A stretch of 64,000 nucleotides of DNA, taken from assembly GCF_048403405.1 (NCBI RefSeq), contig NZ_CP183129.1; one strand, written 5' to 3'. Positions 3,972-37,578 of this stretch are shown in pieces. Below the pieces are notes generated by a model. It had not been told where the DNA came from. It saw only the letters and a list, made by a program, of their open reading frames with translations, and did no database searches. A program made the translations under genes and the position numbers. Numbering within the stretch: the stretch's first letter is position 1; each line of letters starts with the position of its first letter. The DNA comes from Escherichia coli. GTDB taxonomy: Bacteria; Pseudomonadota; Gammaproteobacteria; Enterobacterales; Enterobacteriaceae.

Positions 3972-4999
<1,028 letters not shown>

Positions 5000-26581: not shown

Positions 26582-28987
26582 ATGGCAGCAGTAAAAATCT
26601 CAGGTGTGCTGAAAGATGGTGCGGGAAAACCAATACAGAACTGCACTATTCAACTGAAGGCAAAGCGTAACAGCACCACGGTACTGGTGAACACGGTGGC
26701 CTCTGAAAATCCGGATGAAGCCGGGCGTTACAGCATGGATGTTGAGTATGGCCAGTACAGCGTTATCCTGCTTGTTGAAGGTTTTCCGCCTTCACATGCC
26801 GGAACCATTACCGTCTATGAAGGTTCCAGACCAGGTACGCTGAATGATTTTCTCGGTGCCATGACGGAAGATGATGTCATGCCGGAGGCATTGCGTCGTT
26901 TTGAGGAAATGGTGGAAGAAGCGGCACGCAACGCCGAAGCCGCCTCTCAGAGCGCAGCGGCGGCAAAGAAATCCGAAACTGCAGCGGCATCATCAAAGAA
27001 CGCGGCGAAAACCTCAGAAACGAATGCAGCTAATAGTGCACAGGCGGCAGCGACCTCAAAGACTGCATCGGCAAACTCCGCGACAGCAGCCAAAAAATCA
27101 GAAACCAACGCGAAAAATAGCGAGACAGCCGCAAAGACGAGCGAAACCAACGCAAAGTCCAGCCAGACGGCAGCGAAAACCAGCGAAACGAATGCCAAAG
27201 CCAGTGAAACTGCGGCAAAAAACAGCCAGGTTGCAGCAGCCCAAAGCGAGAGCGCGGCAGCCGGTTCTGCGACTTCAGCAGCTGGATCAGCAACTGCTGC
27301 GGCTAACAGCCAGAAAGCTGCGAAGACGAGTGAAACTAACGCAAAGTCCAGCCAGACGGCAGCGAAGACCAGCGAAACGAATGCCAAAGCCAGTGAAACT
27401 GCGGCGAAAAGCAGTCAGGATGCAGCGGCCCAAAGCGAGAGTGCCGCAGCCAGTTCTGCAAGCGCGGCGGCTGCTTCTGCCACTGCATCAGCTAACAGTC
27501 AAAAAGCAGCAAAAACCAGTGAAACCAACGCAAAGGCGAGCGAGACTGCGGCGGCGAACTCGGCGCAAGCATCGGCAGCAAGCCAGACAGCAGCTAAAGC
27601 AAGTGAAGACGCAGCCAGAGAGTATGCAAGCCAGGCAGCGGAGCCGTATAAACAAGTTTTGCAGCCGTTGCCCGATGTGTGGATACCGTTTAATGATTCA
27701 CTGGATATGATTACGGGCTTTTCGCCATCATATAAAAAAATTGTTATTGGCGACGATGAAATAACAATGCCTGGCGACAAGATTGTAAAGTTTAAACGCG
27801 CATCGAAAGCAACTTACATTAATAAATCTGGTGTGCTGACAGAGGCTGCCATTGACGAGCCACGATTTGAACGTGATGGCCTGCTTATTGAGGGGCAAAG
27901 AACTAACCTGCTAATCAATTCAACAAATCCGACTAAATGGAACAAGTCGTCAAATATGATCTTAAGTGCATCAGGTGTAGATGATTTCGGATTCCAGTAC
28001 GCAAAATTTACATTAAAACCAGAAATGGTAGGGCAAATTTCAGCGATTAACATAGTAACCGTTTCCGGCAGTAAAGGTTTTGATGTAACAGGCGGAGAAA
28101 AGTATGTAACCATATCATGCAGGGTGCAAAGTGGCACTCCAAATTTAAGATGCCGATTACGATTTGAAAACTATGATGGTTCTACCTACACATTCTTAGG
28201 TGACGCTTACTTAAATACGACAGATTTATCTATTGATAAGACGGGTGGTGCCGCTAATCGCATTACTGCAAGGGCTGTTAAAGATGAAGCAAGCAAATGG
28301 ATCTTTTTTGAGGCGACAATTAAGGCACTTGATACAGAAAATATGATAGGTGGAATGGTTCAGTATGCCCCGGCAAAAGGAGTGGGCACTGGCGCGGATG
28401 ATTATATTTATATTGCGACCCCTCAAGTTGAAGGTGGGGCGTGCGCTTCATCGTTTATTATAACAGGCGCATCCCCTGTAACACGCGCCAGCGATATTGT
28501 AACGGTCCCCATTTCTCTAAATTGGTGCAATCCCGCTATTAGTTCATTAGCAGAAGTTAATACCAATTGGGATGAATCGCCAAACAAAGAAGGTAGCGCA
28601 CGTATTCTTAATATTTCCACTACGGGAGATACAACTGAAATTGCAGATGAAAGTTATATGTATTTGGGGTATACATCTTTGGGAGCACGCGCAATCATTA
28701 CAAATGGTAAAGGCACTAAAATAGAATATAAAAGCGTTATAGAACGACCAGAGAGAAAAAGCATTATCGGCTTTAGATTCACAGAAAGTCGAGAATTGTG
28801 TGTTGTGGTTAACGGTAATATTGGTGCTAAGGTAGTTTCTCCTTATAAAAAACACAAATATACAGGAGGCTTCATTAATATTGGTGGTCAATCATCATCC
28901 GGCAACCGTCACCTATTTGGACACGTTCGAAATCTGCGTATTTGGCACAAGGCATTGACTGATGCTCAGATGGGGGAGTCAATCTAA
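26582..28987 (+). CDS. stf: side tail fibre protein Stf with a replaced, low-GC C-terminal receptor-binding module
   Basis: N-terminus MAAVKISGVLKDGAGKPIQNCTIQLKAKRNSTT... matches recalled lambda Stf; Ala/Ser/Thr-rich repeats; C-terminal ~440 aa of lower GC with a possible lectin-like motif. Confidence 0.85.
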   Translation: MAAVKISGVLKDGAGKPIQNCTIQLKAKRNSTTVLVNTVASENPDEAGRYSMDVEYGQYSVILLVEGFPPSHAGTITVYEGSRPGTLNDFLGAMTEDDVMPEALRRFEEMVEEAARNAEAASQSAAAAKKSETAAASSKNAAKTSETNAANSAQAAATSKTASANSATAAKKSETNAKNSETAAKTSETNAKSSQTAAKTSETNAKASETAAKNSQVAAAQSESAAAGSATSAAGSATAAANSQKAAKTSETNAKSSQTAAKTSETNAKASETAAKSSQDAAAQSESAAASSASAAAASATASANSQKAAKTSETNAKASETAAANSAQASAASQTAAKASEDAAREYASQAAEPYKQVLQPLPDVWIPFNDSLDMITGFSPSYKKIVIGDDEITMPGDKIVKFKRASKATYINKSGVLTEAAIDEPRFERDGLLIEGQRTNLLINSTNPTKWNKSSNMILSASGVDDFGFQYAKFTLKPEMVGQISAINIVTVSGSKGFDVTGGEKYVTISCRVQSGTPNLRCRLRFENYDGSTYTFLGDAYLNTTDLSIDKTGGAANRITARAVKDEASKWIFFEATIKALDTENMIGGMVQYAPAKGVGTGADDYIYIATPQVEGGACASSFIITGASPVTRASDIVTVPISLNWCNPAISSLAEVNTNWDESPNKEGSARILNISTTGDTTEIADESYMYLGYTSLGARAIITNGKGTKIEYKSVIERPERKSIIGFRFTESRELCVVVNGNIGAKVVSPYKKHKYTGGFINIGGQSSSGNRHLFGHVRNLRIWHKALTDAQMGESI
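27100..27560. repeat. about 2.4 tandem copies of a 189-bp (63-codon) in-frame repeat inside stf
   Basis: cgcaaagtccagccagacggcagcgaa(a/g)accagcgaaacgaatgccaaagccagtgaaactgcggc recurs at 27151 and 27340. Confidence 0.7.
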
Positions 28988-29268
28988 TGAAAGATTTAAC
29001 ACTCAAATTTGCCGACAGGGCCGACTTTTCGGCCTTTATGGGAAGTATTGGCTATTATAATGACGAGTCGATGCAGGATGATATTCTGATTGATGTGATA
29101 GGTAACGTGTACAAAGAAACCGGAGAGCTGACTGAAGATGGCGAACCGGTATGTGTTAAGGAAGATGGATATTTTGTAAACGTGCGCATCATTAAGGATA
29201 CGCAAATATCGTCATTATTCGATGAATACGTGGTTGCTGTTGAGCATCAACTTCGTGGCTGGATGTGA
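28987..29268 (+). CDS. ORF-A: small acidic protein (93 aa), function unknown
   Basis: ATG overlaps the stf stop (TAATG); about 19 Asp/Glu versus 8 Lys/Arg; no family recognised. Confidence 0.5.
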   Translation: MKDLTLKFADRADFSAFMGSIGYYNDESMQDDILIDVIGNVYKETGELTEDGEPVCVKEDGYFVNVRIIKDTQISSLFDEYVVAVEHQLRGWM

Positions 29269-29277
29269 GGAAGAAAA

Positions 29278-30318
29278 ATGGCTACATCGACAGTAATTCC
29301 TGATGACATCAAAACGCTAAAATCCGACGTTAGCAAATTAAAAAACGATCAAGGAAGCTACGCAACAAAATTATATGTAGACAGCAAAGATGAAATCGTT
29401 GGTGACTGGTCTGCTTCATGGTATCAGCAGGTATTGCCAACTAGCGGAGCTATATTTGGGAGAAAACTCCGCTCAACTCACAGGACGGCAGGTGTTGAGG
29501 ATGCGTATTGCGAACTATACCTCAAAAAATGGATAGACAGTCCAGGTAACGCAATGGCGCGCCTTAACCTGAACGATAACGGGACAAACATTTGCTGGGA
29601 CTTTACCAACCTTTATGGCGGTACGATGATTTTTCCCGGTGACAGCGGATACCTCAAAATGGGTAACTGCCTTATGTCATACAGCAAGCGTGGAAGTAAC
29701 GCGCTTATTAAATTTGATTACACCGACACATTACAGATCAAATATGCCAATCATGGGTCAACCATGACATTAAACACACAGGGAACCGCTTATGCTGGTG
29801 TTACTGCTCAATTGTGGGGCAACTCCAGCCGTCCTGTTGTTTATGAAGTCGGTGTTGATGGTGGCGCTTATATGTTCTATGCGCAAAAAAATACCGATAA
29901 CACCTATATGTTAAGCGTTAATGGTGCATGTCATGCCACCGCATTTAACCAGCATTCCGACCGGGATCTGAAAGACAACATTCAGGTGATCGATAATGCA
30001 ACCGACCGCATCCGTAAAATGAACGGCTATACATACACGCTTAAAGAAAACGGTATGCCCTATGCTGGTGTCATTGCACAGGAAGCTCTGGAAGCAATCC
30101 CAGAAGTTGTAGGTTCCGCAATGAAATATCAGGACGGCGCAAGCGGATCGGAAGGTGAAGAAGGTGAACGTTATTACACAGTAGATTATTCTGGTGTTAC
30201 TGGCTTGCTTGTTCAGGTAGCCAGAGAGTCAGACGACAGAATAACAGCACTGGAAGAAGAAAACGCAGAATTAAGACAAAGATTATCTGCAATTGAGGCG
30301 GCGCTTGCGTCTAAATAA
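29278..30318 (+). CDS. ORF-B: fibre/tailspike-like protein (346 aa) with C-terminal intramolecular-chaperone (peptidase S74-like) domain
   Basis: RBS GGAAG; C-terminal SDRDLKDNIQ...YTYTLKENGMPYAGVIAQEALEAIPEVV...coiled-coil ITALEEENAELRQRLSAIEAAL, the pattern of autoproteolytic fibre chaperone domains; hairpin aggggccgagcgcccc after the stop. Confidence 0.6.
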   Translation: MATSTVIPDDIKTLKSDVSKLKNDQGSYATKLYVDSKDEIVGDWSASWYQQVLPTSGAIFGRKLRSTHRTAGVEDAYCELYLKKWIDSPGNAMARLNLNDNGTNICWDFTNLYGGTMIFPGDSGYLKMGNCLMSYSKRGSNALIKFDYTDTLQIKYANHGSTMTLNTQGTAYAGVTAQLWGNSSRPVVYEVGVDGGAYMFYAQKNTDNTYMLSVNGACHATAFNQHSDRDLKDNIQVIDNATDRIRKMNGYTYTLKENGMPYAGVIAQEALEAIPEVVGSAMKYQDGASGSEGEEGERYYTVDYSGVTGLLVQVARESDDRITALEEENAELRQRLSAIEAALASK

Positions 30319-30360
30319 TATCAAGGGGCCGAGCGCCCCGTTTTATTGGGTAGGATGAAA

Positions 30361-30654
30361 ATGGATATAACACCTTTCCTTCATGCGCTTTGTGCTGTGG
30401 CTGCGCAGCTACTGGTTGGTCTTTTTACCGGGAACTGGGCTTACGGGGCGATAGCCGGTTGTACGTTCTTCATTGCGCGTGAACACACCCAGGCGGAATA
30501 TCGCTGGATTGAAATGTTTGGGCATGGCAAGAGGATTAACATGCCGTGGTGGGGCGGTTTTGATCCGCGCGTGTGGGATGTGGCAAGCCTGATGGATTTT
30601 GCTGTGCCGGTGGTGGCGTGTCTGCTGGTCTGGCTGTTGGTTAATCGTGGGTGA
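30361..30654 (+). CDS. ORF-C: small membrane protein (97 aa; 2-3 predicted transmembrane segments)
   Basis: Hydrophobic stretches ALCAVAAQLLVGLF, GAIAGCTFFIA, VPVVACLLVWLLV; AGGA 5 nt upstream of ATG; start could also be 30346 or 30355. Confidence 0.5.
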   Translation: MDITPFLHALCAVAAQLLVGLFTGNWAYGAIAGCTFFIAREHTQAEYRWIEMFGHGKRINMPWWGGFDPRVWDVASLMDFAVPVVACLLVWLLVNRG

Positions 30655-30664
30655 AAAAAGGTGA

Positions 30665-30784
30665 GCTGTATATGCAACGGAGGAAGAAACCCCGTTGCTG
30701 GAAGCCTGGAAAAAGTATCGGGTGTTGCTGAACCGTGTTGATACGTCAACTGCACAGGATATTGAATGGCCAGCACTGCCGTAG
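30665..30784 (+). pseudogene. tfa: 3-prime remnant of tail-fibre assembly gene tfa (last ~36 codons only)
   Basis: Frame opening right after the ORF-C stop reads [39 protein letters not shown], matching the recalled lambda Tfa C-terminus; no start codon or N-terminal domain. Confidence 0.7.
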
Positions 30785-30881
30785 GGTAAAACATATAAAT
30801 TCTATAATTAGATGTATCTTTCCATTTACGGCAAGGAAGGGGGCTTGGAAGACGTAAAGCATCTCACACCGAGATTATTTT

Positions 30882-31472
30882 TTATATGTCAGGTGTCTGA
30901 AGTTTTGCTTTGGCTCTTAAAATGGTTTGCCGCGAGGTTTTGAATTCCCGGGCAATGGCACTTATACTTACACCTGACTTAATTCGTTCGAATACCACCT
31001 GTTTCTGTTCTTCATTTAACACAGGTGGTCGACCAAAACGTTTCCCTGCGCCCCGGGCTCTTACTATCCCGGAATGAGTGCGTTCAAGTAAAAGGTCTCG
31101 TTCAAATTCAGCGACTGCTGAAATTACTTGCATCATCATTTTTCCTGTTGGACTGGTCAGGTCAATGCCCCCCAATGCTAAGCAATGCACTCTGATACCT
31201 GTTTCGGTCAGTTGTTCCACTGTTTTCCTGATATCCATTGCATTACAACCAAGGCGATCCAGTTTTGTCACAATCAATTGATCACCACATTTCAGGCGAG
31301 CAAGCAACCGGTTAAAACCAGGACGCTCACTGGTTGCTGCTGAGCCGCTAATGTGTTCTTCGATTATTTGCTGAGGTTTGATTTTAAAACCTGCACTTTC
31401 GATTTCCCGGCGTTGATTTTCGGTGGTCTGATCCAGCGTTGATATCCGACAGTAAGCAAAAATTCGAGACAT
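30882..31472 (-). CDS. pinQ: serine recombinase (invertase/resolvase family), PinQ/PinR-like
   Basis: 196 aa; catalytic-region motif YCRISTLDQ; C-terminal helix-turn-helix; same position as pinQ next to tfa and ydfK in K-12 Qin. Confidence 0.75.
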
Positions 31473-31788
31473 AGTGAGACTCTATACGAAATTGGTGTTC
31501 ATATCATAATGCATCTCAGAAAATAATTTTGATTATTTTTGTGCATGTTTGTATGTACACGTTCGAAAATAAACGAATGCGTATGCAACCCCGTAATTTT
31601 GGTGAGACCCAAAATCGATTTTGTGAAAAATGGCTTTAACTCGGTTTGTTTTTCGAGTTCCGGGCGGACTCAAGGAAGAAGAATAGTGTTGCGTGTTATT
31701 TTAACCAGATTTCAAGTTGTTTGGTCGTGGAAAAGTGGAGCAAAATGTTGTTAAAGTGGAAAAATGATAAAAAAGTAAGTTTATTATA

Positions 31789-32022
31789 TTACATTTTACC
31801 ATTTAAATTTTGGTTGTCTTTAAGAACTGATATCGCTGTTTGTAATAATTCTTTGTTATCCAGCCATGACTTTTTCTTTATGTTTCCTTCAATGTAATCA
31901 AGCAATGTTCTGGTATTGATAGGTCTTCCCTGTTTTGCCACTTCCACGACAGCATCTCCCAGGATAATTCTGACTTCAGGAAGCTGCGCAGGGAACCACT
32001 TTAGGGTGTCTTTTGATTTCAT
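31789..32022 (-). CDS. ydfK: YdfK/YnaE-family cold-shock-inducible prophage protein
   Basis: 77 aa from MKSKDTLKWFPAQLPEVRIILGDAVVEVAKQGRP...; AT-rich leader upstream (higher coordinates). Confidence 0.75.
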   Translation of the reverse strand: MKSKDTLKWFPAQLPEVRIILGDAVVEVAKQGRPINTRTLLDYIEGNIKKKSWLDNKELLQTAISVLKDNQNLNGKM

Positions 32023-32807
32023 GAATATATTCCTTAAAATATTATTGATTTTCATTGCGATATTGTATGTCTGATTCAGGATATGTTGACTTATACATCG
32101 GTTTTGTCTGGGTTATTGGATATGCCAATCCCTAATTTTATTAGAGCATGACTAAAAATGCTGAATATGATAAGGAGCGAAGTGATTATCAGTATGCTGT
32201 TCATATAGCCTCGAATTAGTAATGTGTTATATATGATATAGTTGACAATTTTTATCCTGGGTGTTCTTAAAGTTCGTAGATAAACATTGTCGTTTCAGGT
32301 ATACAGGAATGCTAACAGATGGCGGCAAAAATCAGGCGGTTTATGGCGCAAGCTGAAGTGGCAACTGCAAACTATCTTATGCAGAGACTCTACACGGATT
32401 GGGTTTAAAAGTATACATAGATAACAGTTTTTATCTGAAGAAGAAAAATATCAAGGTGATATAGCCTATATGCCTTTGATGCGGAGGAATGAATGTGATG
32501 GGAGTGATGTATCTGAATAGTTGAAAAACCGCAGACACGCCTTATGCAAGAACGTGCTGCGGTTGGCTGGTAAATTTTTCGATAGTGCGAGTATTGAATG
32601 ATTTCCAGCCGTTATTGATTTTACGCGTAACTCCATGAAAAAACTACTTATCTGTTGAGGAGTTTTTTTGGGGCATATATGGGACAGAAATAGGCCCCAG
32701 ATAGACACTGAGATCGAACTTAGGATGCTTTTTAAAAAATGCAACTATCTGAAAAAACCTAGAAAACGCCAAGGAAACCACAGGATGGGAAAAAACACCT
32801 GTGAATT

Positions 32808-34091
32808 ATGGATTTCCAGTTATATTCGCTCGGCGCAGCGTTAGTGTTTCATGAAATATTTTTTCCTGAATCATCAACGGCAATGGCGTTAATTCTGGCA
32901 ATGGGAACCTACGGTGCAGGTTATGTGGCGCGTATTGTCGGAGCATTTATTTTCGGCAAAATGGGCGACAGAATCGGGCGTAAAAAAGTACTCTTTATTA
33001 CCATCACCATGATGGGGATCTGTACCACCTTAATTGGTGTGTTACCGACCTATGCACAGATTGGTGTTTTTGCACCCATCTTGCTGGTGACGCTGCGTAT
33101 TATTCAGGGATTGGGTGCAGGTGCGGAAATTTCCGGTGCCGGTACGATGCTGGCGGAATATGCGCCAAAAGGTAAGCGCGGAATTATCTCCTCATTTGTG
33201 GCTATGGGGACTAACTGCGGAACCTTGAGCGCAACGGCAATCTGGGCCTTTATGTTCTTCATTCTCAGTAAAGAGGAACTGCTTGCGTGGGGATGGCGTA
33301 TACCGTTCCTGGCGAGCGTTGTCGTGATGGTCTTTGCTATCTGGTTGCGTATGAATCTGAAAGAAAGCCCGGTCTTTGAGAAGGTTAACGACAGCAACCA
33401 ACCGACAGCAAAACCTGCACCTGCTGGTAGCATGTTCCAGAGCAAATCCTTCTGGCTGGCAACAGGGCTGCGTTTTGGTCAGGCTGGTAACTCCGGTTTA
33501 ATTCAGACTTTCCTTGCAGGCTATTTAGTGCAGACGTTATTGTTTAACAAAGCAATTCCAACAGATGCATTGATGATCAGTTCGATTCTCGGCTTTATGA
33601 CCATTCCGTTCCTTGGTTGGTTATCCGATAAAATTGGTCGCCGGATCCCGTATATTATTATGAATACCTCTGCGATTGTGCTGGCGTGGCCAATGCTTTC
33701 TATCATCGTAGATAAAAGCTATGCCCCGAGCACCATTATGGTTGCACTGATTGTGATTCATAACTGTGCGGTGCTGGGATTATTTGCTCTGGAAAACATT
33801 ACCATGGCAGAAATGTTCGGCTGTAAAAACCGCTTTACCCGGATGGCTATTTCTAAAGAAATTGGTGGTCTTATCGCTTCCGGTTTTGGTCCTATCCTGG
33901 CGGGTATTTTCTGCACCATGACGGAATCCTGGTATCCGATCGCCATTATGATCATGGCATATTCAGTGATTGGTTTAATCTCTGCGCTGAAAATGCCAGA
34001 AGTGAAAGACCGTGATTTAAGTGCACTGGAAGATGCCGCGGAAGATCAACCGCGTGTTGTAACAGCTGCGCAACCTTCAAGAAGTCTGTAA
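32808..34091 (+). CDS. ydfJ: MFS metabolite transporter YdfJ, N-terminally truncated at the prophage junction
   Basis: 427-aa ORF; MFS motif GKMGDRIGRKK at residue ~50 means the first transmembrane helix is largely missing; AT-rich prophage DNA directly upstream. Confidence 0.8.
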   Translation: MDFQLYSLGAALVFHEIFFPESSTAMALILAMGTYGAGYVARIVGAFIFGKMGDRIGRKKVLFITITMMGICTTLIGVLPTYAQIGVFAPILLVTLRIIQGLGAGAEISGAGTMLAEYAPKGKRGIISSFVAMGTNCGTLSATAIWAFMFFILSKEELLAWGWRIPFLASVVVMVFAIWLRMNLKESPVFEKVNDSNQPTAKPAPAGSMFQSKSFWLATGLRFGQAGNSGLIQTFLAGYLVQTLLFNKAIPTDALMISSILGFMTIPFLGWLSDKIGRRIPYIIMNTSAIVLAWPMLSIIVDKSYAPSTIMVALIVIHNCAVLGLFALENITMAEMFGCKNRFTRMAISKEIGGLIASGFGPILAGIFCTMTESWYPIAIMIMAYSVIGLISALKMPEVKDRDLSALEDAAEDQPRVVTAAQPSRSL

Positions 34092-34097
34092 ATCCTC

Positions 34098-34130
34098 CAT
34101 CCCTTCTCTTACCGGAGAGGGGATTTTTTA
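34098..34130 (+). terminator. terminator after ydfJ
   Basis: cccttctcttaccggagaggggattttttatt: imperfect stem plus T-run. Confidence 0.5.
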
Positions 34131-34180
34131 TTCATATAACAAAACATGCAGCTTGCCATATTTAAATTTAAGGAATTGTT

Positions 34181-35641
34181 ATGGGAAATAATTTGTTATC
34201 AGCAAAAGCGACACTCCCTGTTTATGATCGTAATAACCTGGCCCCAAGAATTGTTCATTTAGGCTTTGGTGCATTTCACCGTGCGCATCAGGGCGTGTAT
34301 GCCGATATTCTTGCTACAAAACATTTCAGTGATTGGGGATATTATGAGGTCAATTTAATCGGCGGCGAACAGCAAATTGCCGATTTACAACAGCAAGATA
34401 ATCTTTATACCGTTGCGGAAATGTCGGCCGATGCGTGGACGGCTCGCGTCGTTGGCGTCGTTAAAAAAGCCTTGCACGTACAGATTGATGGCTTAGAAAC
34501 CGTGTTGGCTGCGATGTGTGAACCGCAAATCGCGATTGTCTCTCTGACAATCACCGAAAAAGGGTATTTCCACTCTCCGGCGACCGGACAGTTAATGCTC
34601 GATCACCCGATGGTCGTTGCCGACGTACAAAATCCCCACCAGCCGAAAACTGCAACAGGGGTGATTGTCGAGGCGCTGGCTCGCCGTAAAGCGGCAGGAC
34701 TTCCCGCATTTACCGTCATGTCATGTGACAACATGCCAGAAAACGGTCATGTTATGCGTGACGTTGTCACTTCCTACGCGCAAGCTGTTGATGTAAAACT
34801 GGCACAATGGATCGAAGAAAACGTGACTTTCCCATCAACAATGGTGGACCGTATTGTGCCCGCAGTGACGGAGGATACGCTGGCGAAAATCGAACAACTT
34901 ACCGGTGTGCGCGATCCTGCTGGCGTTGCCTGTGAACCTTTCCGCCAGTGGGTAATAGAAGATAACTTTGTTGCCGGACGTCCGGAATGGGAAAAAGCGG
35001 GAGCCGAACTGGTTAGTGATGTGCTGCCTTATGAAGAGATGAAGTTGCGCATGCTCAACGGCAGTCATTCATTCCTGGCGTATCTGGGGTATCTTGCCGG
35101 ATATCAGCACATTAATGACTGCATGGAAGATGAACATTATCATCATGCAGCGTATGCCTTGATGTTGCAGGAACAAGCGCCGACGTTGAAAGTGCAGGGC
35201 GTTGATTTGCAAGATTACGCTAACCGATTGATTGAACGCTATAGCAACCCGGCGCTACGTCATCGAACCTGGCAGATTGCGATGGATGGCAGCCAGAAAT
35301 TGCCACAGCGGATGTTAGATTCTGTTCGCTGGCATCTGGCGCATGACAGCAAGTTCGATCTGCTGGCGCTGGGCGTCGCAGGTTGGATGCGTTATGTGGG
35401 TGGTGTTGATGAACAGGGAAATCCGATAGAAATCAGTGACCCACTGTTACCTGTTATTCAGAAGGCTGTACAAAGTAGTGCCGAAGGGAAAGCGCGCGTC
35501 CAGTCATTGCTGGCGATTAAGGCGATCTTTGGTGATGATTTGCCAGACAATAGCTTGTTTACTGCAAAAGTGACGGAAGCGTACTTGTCTTTATTAGCGC
35601 ATGGTGCAAAAGCGACCGTGGCGAAATATTCCGTGAAGTAA
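34181..35641 (+). CDS. ydfI: mannitol-dehydrogenase-family oxidoreductase YdfI
   Basis: 486 aa; N-terminal Rossmann motif [10 protein letters not shown]. Confidence 0.85.
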
Positions 35642-35644
35642 AAA

Positions 35645-35672
35645 AAGCAATGCCGCCATCGGCGGCATTCAC
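35645..35672. terminator. bidirectional hairpin between ydfI and ydfZ
   Basis: gcaatgccgccatcggcggcattc. Confidence 0.6.
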
Positions 35673-35676
35673 ACGC

Positions 35677-35880
35677 TTAGTTCATGCCGAGACGAATCAG
35701 GTCCAGAGGTGCCAGTTTCTCTTCACAACCTTCAACAACTACGGTTTTTCCGCGGCGGATTTGCTCAGCGGTCAGACCTTCAGTATCAATCGACAGGATC
35801 TTGCCAGTGTGACCGGTGCCGCTAACCATAACACGGCTGCCAGTGGTGATTGCGTTACGGTTACGATCGTAGGTCGTCAT
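35677..35880 (-). CDS. ydfZ: small protein YdfZ (67 aa)
   Basis: [31 protein letters not shown]...; matches recalled K-12 YdfZ and its position. Confidence 0.8.
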
Positions 35881-36056
35881 AGGTGTTTTCTCCTTTCTGA
35901 TTTACAGTCGAAGCCCACGTAACGGGCGCAATATAAATACTCCTGTCGAGTGAAATATTTTTTGTTTTTGATCAAGCTCACATCTTTTTTGATGCATGCA
36001 TGAGCCATATGACGGAGGGAAAAACTCTCATCCCGGATGGGATGAGAGGAAATGAA

Positions 36057-36743
36057 TTACTCTTCGCTAAACCAGTCGCTGTTTTCCTGACGGATCTGGC
36101 GCACGGATTCGCTGATTTCCTGCAAATGTTGCGTCATTGCACGTTCTACCGCATCGCCATCACGTTTTTGCAGGGCAGAGAAAATCTCAAGATGCTGGCG
36201 TAACAGCATTTCTGGTGGAGAAACGTGGTCGAAACTCATATAGCGCACGCGATCAACGGTCGCTTTCAGGTTCTCAATGGTATCCCACGCCAGTTGACAG
36301 TCGGCAATCTGGGTCAGGAGTTGATGGAAGTTGTCATCAAGTTCAAAAAAATCATCCAGTTGCTTGCGCTCAATGGCAATGCGTTGCTGGTGAAGATTTT
36401 GTTCCAGTTGGTAGCACTGGCTTTCGGTAATCATGCTCGCCGCCCGACGCGCCACCGCGCACTCAATGGCCTGACGGATAAAACTGCCGTTGCGCACCTG
36501 GGCCATGGAAATTTTGTTGACGTAGCTGCCACGCTGCGGACGAATTTGGATCAGGCCGTTTTCCGCCAGTTTAATAAAGGCTTCACGAACCGGCTGGCGT
36601 GACACATTGAAACGAACAGAAACTTCTTTTTCCGACAACGGTGTGCCTGGTGCAATCAGGCAATGGACAATGTCGCGACGAAGGATACGATAAATTTGCT
36701 GATTGACAGGCTGTGTGGGATTAAGTTGCGTTTCGACGGTCAT
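36057..36743 (-). CDS. ydfH: GntR/FadR-family transcriptional regulator YdfH (RspR)
   Basis: 228 aa; N-terminal winged helix-turn-helix, FCD-type C-terminal domain. Confidence 0.85.
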
Positions 36744-36831
36744 TCGTTCTTGCTTGTGAGTGAGTTAACTGCATGAGTCTACCACTTTTTTGTGACAAGC
36801 AATAACCCGGCAGTTACGCCGGGTATAAAAA

Positions 36832-37578
36832 TTACTGACGGTGGACATTCAGTCCGGCATAGCTTTGGGTAACCGGCATCATTTCCAGGGTATTGATATT
36901 AACGTGAGCAGGCAGCGTTGACACCCACCAGACGGCTTCGCTGACATCTTCTGGCGTCAATGCAACGGTATTTTGATAGGTTTTTTCCGCTTTACCGTCA
37001 TCGCCTTTAAAGCGGACATTGGAAAACTCGGTGCCACCCACCAGACCCGGTTCGATGTCGGTGACGCGCACCGCCGTACCATGCAGGTCCGTACGCAGAT
37101 TCAGGCTAAACTGACGAACAAACGCTTTCGTCGCACCGTAAACGTTACCACCGGCATACGGCCAGCTGCCTGCCGTTGAGCCAATGTTAATAATATGACC
37201 ATGATTACGTTCAACCATACCCGGTAAGACGGCGCGCGTCATATATACCAGGCCTTTGTTGTTGGTATCAATCATCGTTTCCCAGTCTTCAACGCTGGCT
37301 TTATGCGCAGGCTCCATGCCCAACGCCAGACCGGCATTATTTACCAGGATATCAATATTGCACCACTCGGCAGGAAGCGATGCCAGCATCTCTTCAATAG
37401 CGGCGCGGTTGCGAACGTCCAGTTGGGCGATATAAAGATTATCTCCCAGTTCGTCTTTTAACTCCTGCAACCGCTCCTGGCGACGGCCAGTGGCGATAAC
37501 TTTATGCCCTTGTTGAATAAAACGACGAGTAATGCATTCACCAAAACCTGCCGTTGCTCCAGTTACTAAAACGATCAT
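36832..37578 (-). CDS. ydfG: NADP-dependent 3-hydroxy acid dehydrogenase (short-chain dehydrogenase family)
   Basis: 248 aa from MIVLVTGATAGFG (GxxxGxG); catalytic YxxxK. Confidence 0.85.
   Translation of the reverse strand: MIVLVTGATAGFGECITRRFIQQGHKVIATGRRQERLQELKDELGDNLYIAQLDVRNRAAIEEMLASLPAEWCNIDILVNNAGLALGMEPAHKASVEDWETMIDTNNKGLVYMTRAVLPGMVERNHGHIINIGSTAGSWPYAGGNVYGATKAFVRQFSLNLRTDLHGTAVRVTDIEPGLVGGTEFSNVRFKGDDGKAEKTYQNTVALTPEDVSEAVWWVSTLPAHVNINTLEMMPVTQSYAGLNVHRQ

Follow-up and report, generated by a model that had tools for sequence, protein, structure and literature searches.

Evidence for a lambda-like prophage attachment junction inside ydfJ of Escherichia coli and the parts of its AT-rich spacer

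The described systems closest to the locus considered here are phage lambda and the Qin and Rac prophages. In lambda the 3' end of int is followed by a P' arm with an IHF site, a 15 bp core and a longer P arm with paired repeats, its heterobivalent integrase has an arm-binding domain, and past the P arm, ∼150 bp from the core, lies the tI/sib hairpin with its U-tract, which is split from int on integration. The Rac prophage, with an integrase of its own and ttcA as attachment site, carries a cargo unit, ynaE-ynaM, that is paralogous to ydfK-ynfT of Qin. Qin of K-12 is a remnant of ∼20 kb that has deprived ydfJ of its promoter and 28 N-terminal codons (PMC6379469).

Here we describe a 64,000-nucleotide stretch of E. 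coli DNA (contig NZ_CP183129.1, referred to in what follows as the window) in which positions 32056-32816 separate ydfK from the greater part of ydfJ. We are highly confident that these positions form the right-hand attachment junction (attR, P-O-B') of a lambda-like temperate prophage inserted inside ydfJ; the features that make it up are collected in Table 1. Annotation or earlier papers already cover the junction, the loss of 28 codons, ynfT, ynfP and the ydfK leader RNA, and a conserved element originating from the 3' end of dinI-like genes appears to be the sole part that has gone undescribed.

Table 1. Coordinates of features at and around the junction (positions in the window)
Feature	Position	Strand	Description	Basis or relation
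Prophage part of window	1-32805		head, tail, lysis genes	collinear with Ch1 prophage
ydfK	31789-32022	-	cold-shock protein gene, prophage cargo	ORF; RefSeq of K-12 and Ch1 loci
ynfT	32091-32204	-	37-aa small hydrophobic protein, YnaM/YnfT family	upstream of ydfK, same strand
ynfT-ydfK leader and promoter region	32205-32526	-		97-98% common to prophages with other attachment sites (Rac-type ynaM-ynaE)
Hairpin B	32527-32564	-	intrinsic-terminator-like, 13-14 bp stem then UUUUU	phage module boundary
Conserved non-coding core	32565-32624	-	60 nt, GGCTGG...CCAGCC stem and flank
dinI remnant	32625-32660	-	last ∼10 codons of dinI-like gene, decayed	aligned with Stx2_499, 2H10, mEp460 dinI loci
attP P arm	32661-32805	.	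∼145 bp	phage half of right-hand junction
Candidate arm-type sites	32669-32675; 32680-32686; 32693-32699		TGGGGCA; TGGGACA; inverted TGGGGCC
Possible weak IHF-like site	32742-32756			87% direct repeat of P'-arm sequence carrying IHF consensus
att core TTATGGATTTC	32806-32816		11 bp, strand-exchange site	within codons 28-31 of intact ydfJ
ydfJ'	32808-34091	+	427 aa, 3' 427 codons of MHS-family MFS transporter gene	ORF; Pfam MFS_1

The prophage to the left of the junction is collinear with a prophage of Ch1 and 99.4-99.6% identical to it. The Ch1 element measures 48.6 kb between its cores, has intact int and xis and encodes terminase, portal, capsid and tail, and the free phage Tritos matches positions 28950-32816 at 99% identity, with the match ending there. 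On these alignments the prophage, seen here at its right-hand end, is a lambdoid element close to full length, related to K-12 Qin and of full size. Insertion site and core are identical to those of Qin, as is the order pinQ-ydfK-ynfT-junction-ydfJ'-ydfI; in K-12 this right junction goes under b4600/b1543. The junction region is 98.5% identical and the same 28 ydfJ codons are lost in K-12. The content of the two elements is nevertheless different, a remnant in K-12 and here a prophage that fills the window from its first base, and identity with the defective ∼20-kb Qin content was rejected in view of the terminase, portal, capsid and tail genes and the collinearity with the 48.6-kb Ch1 prophage. 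The element is accordingly classed, from its genes and their order, as Qin-type and not as the K-12 remnant. Its left end lies outside the window, in which no left prophage junction is found, and integrase-side data have been taken from Ch1.

In order to place the core we have used three-way and nine-way alignments, which include the alignment with uninterrupted ydfJ that an earlier note on this DNA had called for; they put the last phage-specific base at 32805 and the core immediately after it. The 11 bp TTATGGATTTC are identical in the window, in attB of Qin-free strains, in the integrase-side junction of Ch1 and in attP of three of four phages (HannyBb, PhiR42_1 and mEp460_ev081), the core of the fourth, Tritos, differing by one base (TTATGCATTTC). 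Excision would be expected to give CTTGAATTTATGGATTTCCAGTT (attB) and CTGTGAATTATGGATTTCAAGAGTC (attP), and at the integrase-side end of this prophage the core would be expected after xis-int as GAAATCCATAA. The uninterrupted rspB-ydfJ(-ydfI) locus matches the window from 32802 rightwards, with no match leftwards, and in all four free phages arm, core and int are contiguous. Of 5426 complete E. coli genomes, 2009 (∼37%) have an empty site with full-length ydfJ and 1972 (∼36%) the ydfK-junction-ydfJ' arrangement seen here; the remaining genomes have other arrangements, some of which are different prophages with the same arm. Within the window the core occurs once, against a chance expectation of 0.03. 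A second copy is found 48.6 kb away in Ch1, beside xis-int and rspB, and also in K-12-type relatives, so that the duplication is seen in these and in the near-identical Ch1, the window strain's own left end being outside the window. The matching repeat that had been anticipated at the other prophage end is therefore present in the Ch1 integrase-side junction, with a single core copy in the window itself. The earlier note was thus correct in proposing a prophage-chromosome junction inside ydfJ, with an att core in the spacer; the core is found where the spacer meets ydfJ, at the edge of the range 32780-32810 that had been suggested for the junction.

The consequences for ydfJ are clear from comparison with the intact gene of strain ATCC 43886, which encodes 455 aa. 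A full-length alignment does not show an intact N-terminus in the window: the first 28 codons are absent, the motif GKMGDRIGRKK begins at residue 50 instead of 78 (residue ∼50 had been stated correctly, the intact position had been put at ∼85), and the Pfam MFS_1 match begins at profile position 33 as compared with 2 in the intact protein. Because a PDB sequence search with YdfJ returned only a distant phosphate transporter whose match leaves TM1 uncovered, Pfam coordinates and hydropathy were used to assess this helix. The truncation point lies midway through the initial hydrophobic stretch (residues ∼13-46), with M29 as the new start of the protein, and to describe ydfJ as lacking the first transmembrane helix is thus roughly correct. 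No Shine-Dalgarno sequence is found within 15 nt of the ATG at 32808, and RefSeq lists this ydfJ as a pseudogene, 'incomplete, missing N-terminus'. With promoter, ribosome-binding site and the first half of helix 1 gone we consider the window copy a pseudogene; missing 28 codons and its upstream region, ydfJ' is not expected to yield a functional MHS-family MFS transporter.

Two other readings of this boundary have to be weighed. The junction might lie further to the left, at ∼32529-32566, with 32566-32805 representing chromosomal DNA upstream of ydfJ, as could be supposed from BLAST classes that change at 32529/32543 and at 32566-32628 and from EC25- and O157-type strains that share only 32529-32805 with the window. 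At the intact locus, however, where rspB lies 58 bp upstream of ydfJ, nothing matches 32529-32801, and in the genomes of free phages 32450-32816 and int form one continuous stretch. For these two reasons the breaks between 32529 and 32628 are joints between phage modules and not a chromosome junction, and we regard a boundary on the left as next to impossible. It might also be argued that ydfJ is not truncated at all, the 427-aa protein being a short isoform that occurs naturally, with its own promoter in the AT-rich region. An ATG at 32808 does open a 427-aa frame, and older K-12 annotation presented ydfJ as a protein of this length. Against this stand the 2009 genomes in which a 455-aa gene is continuous with rspB, the loss, along with the 28 residues, of MFS_1 profile positions 2-32 and of half the initial hydrophobic stretch, the lack of a Shine-Dalgarno sequence before 32808 and the RefSeq flag, and a short isoform is in our view very improbable. 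The evidence bears out truncation by prophage integration. Recombination by a tyrosine integrase at the core inside the 5' end of chromosomal ydfJ has left codons 1-31 and the promoter beside rspB, past the integrase end and outside the window, where these codons form the short hybrid ORF known in K-12 as ynfP. Codons 29-455 remain in the window, lacking promoter, ribosome-binding site and the N-terminal half of helix 1.

On the phage side of the core the P arm is ∼87-93% conserved among otherwise different ydfJ prophages (EC25, Stx2_499 and O111) and is identical in free-phage attP. Tritos, HannyBb, PhiR42_1 and mEp460_ev081 are 98-99.5% identical to the window over 32450-32816, with the same arm and the same dinI-less spacer, the difference being that their core runs into a P' arm and the 3' end of int and not into ydfJ. 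The integrase contains Arm-DNA-bind_2 (84 bits) and Phage_integrase domains. Five of the seven matches to TGGGRCM in 7.4 kb lie within a span of at most 225 bp around the core and include two pairs with 11-bp spacing, and the single IHF consensus in the same 7.4 kb is in the P' arm, 16 bp from the core; both the arm-type and the IHF sites are motif matches picked after the sequence had been viewed. The paired TGGGRCA repeats are probably arm-type sites for the N-terminal arm-binding domain of the integrase, and the candidate Int- and IHF-bound sequences are the TGGGRCA pairs and TATCAAATAGTTG.

The arrangement resembles that of lambda in the succession of int 3' end, P' arm with a candidate IHF site, core and longer P arm with paired candidate arm-type repeats, in a heterobivalent integrase with an arm-binding domain, and in a hairpin with a U-tract past the P arm, a position seen in Tritos. 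It departs from lambda in its core of 11 bp as opposed to 15 bp, in a target that is inside a gene and in the greater distance between hairpin and core, ∼240 bp as opposed to ∼150 bp. In the circular phage int is read over the core into the P arm and towards the hairpin ∼240 bp further on, where its transcripts may terminate; the hairpin therefore occupies the position of the lambda tI/sib terminator, and integration parts it from int. By analogy, sib-like retroregulation through RNase III at hairpin B is possible. The element has no sequence similarity to lambda tI/sib, and in lambda-att-type contigs it is a separate unit found directly 3' of tI.

The DNA between ydfK and ydfJ (32056-32810) has a GC content of 37.7% as compared with 48.6% for the window, which places it within the lowest 5% of 755-bp windows and bears out its description as AT-rich. 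In contrast, the statement that it holds no convincing ORF was mistaken, as ynfT is located there. YnfT scores 96.2 bits against Pfam PF23676 YnaM (cut-off 27), with residues 1-37 of 37 aligned, and the identical K-12 peptide, under the name ynfQ, has been detected by epitope tagging (VanOrsdel 2018, PMC6001520). YnaM and YnfT have the same peptide sequence, ydfK is a homologue of ynaE, and the DNA of the Rac unit is 97-98% identical up to the hairpin, with homology classes of the leader module ending at 32536-32578. For ydfK itself RefSeq gives 77 aa, and an alternative ATG at 32055 would give 88 aa. Other spacer frames of 92 aa (32466-32744, minus strand), 58 aa and 45 aa were rejected as genes because Pfam gave nothing credible for any of them; indels in relatives also disrupt the 92-aa frame. 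A promoter scan of the leader gave one weak sigma-70-like site, at 32439-32410, that does not rise above the shuffled or chance level, and folding of the ynfT/ydfK leader over 32015-32405 is not unusual (z = +0.35). Short leader-derived transcripts of ydfK and ynaE, with Hfq binding, have been described in the literature. The expectation that the spacer would contain the ydfK leader thus holds for the region upstream of ydfK, with ∼280 bp of the remainder made up of the attP arm and the dinI-type 3' module. The whole spacer is of phage origin, and its parts can be identified.

Hairpin B folds with -20.7 kcal/mol (z = -3.8, none of 200 shuffles as stable). Among 84 unique variants of the element, mostly from IMG/VR phage contigs, its stem shows compensatory changes (CCGCAG/CUGCGG, CCGCGG/CCGCGG, CCGUAG/CUACGG, CCGCAA/UUGCGG). 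RNAalifold on 78 variants did not recover the hairpin because of register shifts in the alignment. Strand tests gave conflicting signals, with G.U versus A.C counts of 18 to 29 and a lower MFE on the plus strand in 53 of the 84 variants, and a clear U-tract is present in some variants only; the hairpin probably acts on both strands. In other phages the 60-nt core next to it comes after the stop codon of a dinI-like gene and before hairpin B, and its nucleotide diversity is 0.055 as compared with 0.090 at dinI third positions. Window positions 32523-32648 align at 83-86%, from the last dinI codons to the terminator, with the 3' ends of dinI-like genes in mEp460, 2H10, Stx2 phages and dusA-site prophages, the element being 3' of dinI in mEp460, 2H10 and the dusA-site prophages. 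Together, hairpin and 60-nt core make up the 3' module of dinI-like genes in prophages. At ydfJ, prophages of the Stx2_499 and O111 types have dinI intact between hairpin and arm, whereas the window lacks the dinI coding sequence save for a decayed remnant of ∼30 nt, the rest of the gene (∼250 bp) having been deleted in this phage lineage. A DinI-like ORF is directly upstream of the element in most contexts examined, and in 45 of 135 there is no ORF of at least 40 aa. The unit 32527-32624 is thus found in lambdoid phages 3' of int/attP, lambda tI or dinI-like genes, and is kept despite the dinI deletion.

Several readings of this unit have been weighed. With ynfT and the core set aside, the spacer could be non-functional phage DNA in decay, in which the element persists only since the dinI deletion is recent. 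The clearly decayed dinI remnant at 32625-32660, a core diversity that is not far under the synonymous value for dinI and a leader devoid of special folding would all fit. However, the dinI-less arrangement recurs, 98-100% preserved, in four free phages that were isolated independently and in ∼2000 genomes, the element occurs in those 45 contexts where an upstream ORF of at least 40 aa is missing, the hairpin stem has changed in a compensatory manner and a functional attP requires the arm; we consider decay unlikely, if still of appreciable weight. A different proposal is that 32527-32624 is a stand-alone sRNA, or a regulatory RNA derived from a 3'-UTR, with host or phage mRNAs as its targets in trans. 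A stem-loop followed by a terminator hairpin and U-tract is typical of Hfq-binding sRNAs, the element is conserved across differing upstream contexts, and Hfq-bound RNAs have been reported upstream of ydfK and ynaE in K-12. These reports may concern the ynfT/ydfK leader instead, the promoter scan identified none for such an RNA, and the indications of strand are mixed. When 30500-34500 and three related loci were scanned against Rfam, the minus strand of the element had no match and the plus strand only CssrB (RF02799), at 28.7 bits relative to a gathering threshold of 76, with the terminal hairpin alone aligned and related loci scoring 21.7-22.4 bits. CssrB identity was rejected on this basis; the same scan gave an IS009-like match elsewhere, detected no thermosensor of the cspA type and left the 60-nt core without a family. 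A full-text literature search returned no paper with the conserved element sequence or with an sRNA between ydfJ and ydfK, and for CssrB unrelated papers only. A trans-acting RNA is, in our estimate, doubtful. Similarly, it is with low confidence that we put forward the ∼100 nt of 32527-32624, with their near-invariant 60-nt stem-loop core and covarying hairpin, as an undescribed functional RNA, be it a 3'-UTR-derived sRNA or a sib-like retroregulatory element.

The prophage boundary is now fixed to the base, which aids both the delimitation of prophages and the annotation of pseudogenes, and ydfJ emerges as a heavily used integration site in E. coli. Should the element indeed be sib-like, it would couple expression of int (or dinI) to the integrated or excised state of the phage.

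The interval at 32056-32810 is an ordinary prophage attachment junction, already annotated and published, in which the interrupted host gene is ydfJ; RefSeq flags the remaining part, ydfJ', as a pseudogene. The features of the interval and its flanks are listed in the table, and to the left of ydfK lie pinQ and tail-fibre genes. The AT-rich spacer described in an earlier note is evident from a GC content of 37.7%, as compared with 48.6% for the whole window, which places it among the lowest 5% of 755-bp windows; the ydfK-pinQ region immediately leftward is equally AT-rich. Between the tail-fibre region and pinQ, 30652-30750 (plus strand) partially matches Rfam IS009, below threshold (65.9 bits vs a gathering score of 117); phage mEp460 has a similar match (L007 2249-2449, 91.7 bits).

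Features of the junction and its flanks (window coordinates)
Feature	Position	Strand	Remarks
ydfK	31789-32022/32055	minus	left flank of interval
ynfT, 37 aa	32091-32204	minus	Pfam YnaM, 96 bits
upstream region of ynfT-ydfK	32205-32526		97-98% common with prophages at other sites
hairpin	32527-32564	minus-strand reading, then UUUUU	-20.7 kcal/mol, z = -3.8
60-nt core	32565-32624		near-invariant in 84 variants
dinI-like gene remnant, decayed, last codons	~32625-32660
attP P arm	32661-32805		kept among otherwise different ydfJ prophages
ydfJ' (MFS-transporter ORF, 427 aa)	32808-34091	plus	right flank, then ydfI

We have searched positions 31700-33100 against 5426 complete E. coli genomes and obtained three classes of match. 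The full query is matched in 1972 of these genomes, with RefSeq labels ydfK, ynfT and 'ydfJ, incomplete, missing N-terminus', a second class matches only from 32529-32543 rightwards (∼93%) and comprises other prophages at the same site, and a third matches only from 32802 rightwards. In ATCC 43886, from the third class, the gene order is rspA-rspB-ydfJ-ydfI with a 455-aa ydfJ starting 58 bp past rspB, and this intact locus aligns with window 32802-37102 at 97.9%, with no match between the two to the left of 32802. Because the match starts there, the window ydfJ has lost its promoter region and ribosome-binding site along with 28 codons, so that alignment with an uninterrupted gene, the check proposed earlier, finds the N-terminus not intact; no Shine-Dalgarno sequence precedes the ATG at 32808. 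The motif GKMGDRIGRKK begins at residue 50 of the window ORF, in keeping with the earlier note, and at residue 78 of intact YdfJ rather than at the ∼85 given there. Pfam MFS_1 aligns to the truncated protein from profile position 33 onward, vs from position 2 in the intact one. Loss of the first transmembrane helix had been claimed; the N-terminus is indeed gone, but since the first hydrophobic segment spans residues ∼13-46 in the hydropathy profile of intact YdfJ, the cut at M29 takes off only its first half. A query spanning attB, the empty chromosomal site, finds the site unoccupied in 2009 of the 5426 genomes. Integration at ydfJ is very common, with ∼37% of complete E. coli genomes empty and ∼36% carrying the same junction as the window, and the remaining genomes include prophages with the same arm and different cargo (nleC, nleG7 or dinI; O157/O111/Stx2 phages).

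Apart from an IS2 in Ch1 and a non-aligning tail-fibre segment, the window aligns collinearly with a prophage of the near-identical strain Ch1 (99.4-99.6%), and at the other end of that prophage exo-xis-int adjoins rspB. Aligned with one another, the window junction, the integrase-side junction of Ch1 and the empty site have a single block in common, TTATGGATTTC, at 32806-32816, preceded by an imperfect TGAAT(T). This core is present once in the window (0.03 expected by chance) and its two Ch1 copies are 48.6 kb apart; the att core expected in the spacer is located in the window, and the matching repeat expected at the other prophage end is located in Ch1. Four sequenced temperate phages (Tritos, HannyBb, PhiR42_1 and mEp460_ev081) are 98-99.5% identical to window 32450-32819, Tritos being 99% identical over 28950-32816 and divergent beyond; past the core all four continue through a ∼35 bp spacer into the int 3' end, xis and exo. 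The exact 11-bp core is found in three of the four, Tritos having one change. From the core and the free-phage mapping, therefore, the earlier estimate of 32780-32810 touches the real core and its interpretation is right; together with the intact-locus and Ch1 comparisons these data support a prophage-chromosome junction inside ydfJ and refine it to a single base. This prophage differs from the Qin remnant of K-12: it is an almost full-length lambdoid relative of Qin that resembles Tritos. The window prophage (1-32805) is without the IS2 found in Ch1 (L004), and it does not align with Ch1 in two places, ∼468-2851 (close to the Q antiterminator/DUF968 region) and 29318-30360 (the tail-fibre tip); these differences are typical mosaic swaps.

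The observation is real except for the statement that the spacer has no convincing ORF, which is wrong on ynfT because its peptide is identical to a tagged, detected K-12 peptide (there named ynfQ) and matches Pfam YnaM; the Rac YnaM peptide is identical as well. For the other spacer ORFs (92, 58 and 45 aa) there is no support as genes. Similarity to prophages at other sites extends to 32536-32578. No promoter could be placed in the ynfT-ydfK upstream region by a promoter scan, and folding gave no unusual structure there. Short leader transcripts of ydfK and ynaE are attributed to Raghavan et al. 2011 in a passage of PMC5089854, and '5' UTR-ydfK' and 'ttcC-ynaE' RNAs are reported to be bound by Hfq (PMC4152368).

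The ∼100-nt unit at 32527-32624, an invariant GGCTGG...CCAGCC stem-loop core with a covarying terminator hairpin, is found at the ends of many lambdoid prophages, after dinI-like genes, after lambda tI, or alone (L007 2501-2624, L008 2501-2698, L012 1501-1600, L014-L018 and IMG/VR loci from L019 on). The 84 variants were drawn from collected loci, most of them IMG/VR phage contigs. Core and hairpin lie directly downstream of a minus-strand dinI-like gene in phages mEp460 and 2H10, and likewise in Stx2_499-/O111-type ydfJ prophages and dusA-site prophages. In the Stx2_499 prophage at ydfJ, an intact dinI still separates the hairpin module from the arm repeats; ∼250 bp of dinI have been lost in the window lineage. 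Most of the 135 contexts examined have a DinI-like ORF immediately upstream, 45 have no ORF of at least 40 aa ending at the element, and four lambda-att-type contigs carry it after the lambda tI/sib hairpin, directly or ∼100 nt on. The dinI-like genes of mEp460 and 2H10 are closely preceded by a perfect SOS box, TACTGTGTTTGTATACAGTA (L007 ∼2860-2900 and L008 ∼2935-2960), at the position where the dinI-keeping ydfJ prophages Stx2_499 and O111 carry attP arm repeats.

The hairpin stem shows compensatory changes and a nucleotide diversity of 0.31. Core diversity is 0.055; in dinI the figure is 0.090 for third codon positions and ∼0.01 for the first two, so the core looks to be under constraint, though not dramatically. 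A 601-bp query including the unit gives 17,921 matches in 5411 E. coli genomes. No Rfam family matches the unit and a literature search did not find its sequence in published papers; this conserved dinI-3'/post-attP element seems to be undescribed, and that it is a functional RNA is doubtful. An 88-bp copy in E. coli SCU-124 (L017 1501-1588, ykgJ-ecpE intergenic), with a perfect 12-bp hairpin (two of its pairs being G.U on the plus strand) and no annotated prophage genes nearby, appears to be left over from an old insertion.

The Tritos integrase combines Arm-DNA-bind_2 (84 bits) with a tyrosine-recombinase catalytic domain, and the neighboring gene encodes a DUF1233 excisionase. The 7.4-kb Tritos locus has seven TGGGRCM matches, of which five cluster within 225 bp around the att core. 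In the P arm these are a pair 11 bp apart (window 32669 and 32680) and a single inverted copy (32693-32699); the P' arm has a second pair, likewise spaced by 11 bp, inside the int end, and also the sole IHF consensus of the locus, 16 bp from the core. As candidate sites these match the lambda plan, in which a heterobivalent Int would bridge arm and core sites and IHF would bend the DNA. In the circular phage, int transcription would run through the core and P arm and reach the hairpin ∼240 bp on, as compared with ∼150 bp from the lambda core to tI/sib in the same orientation, and int transcripts (ancestrally also dinI) may well terminate there. Integration shifts the hairpin ∼48 kb from int; sib-like RNase III control is possible but rather improbable. 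Plus-strand late transcripts may also end at this hairpin, whose plus-strand reading gives a weak Rfam CssrB match. Wobble-pair counts and MFE comparisons did not single out one strand.

On the integrase side of Ch1 (L005 ∼4380-4500, outside the window) the first 31 ydfJ codons and phage DNA form a 42-codon hybrid ORF, MTIEKHERSTKDLVKAAVSGWLGTALEFMDFKSHTCQLFDKY; the K-12 equivalent, YnfP (36 aa), is listed among detected small proteins. The start codon and these 31 codons read on into phage DNA, and therefore the host promoter still drives a chimeric peptide.
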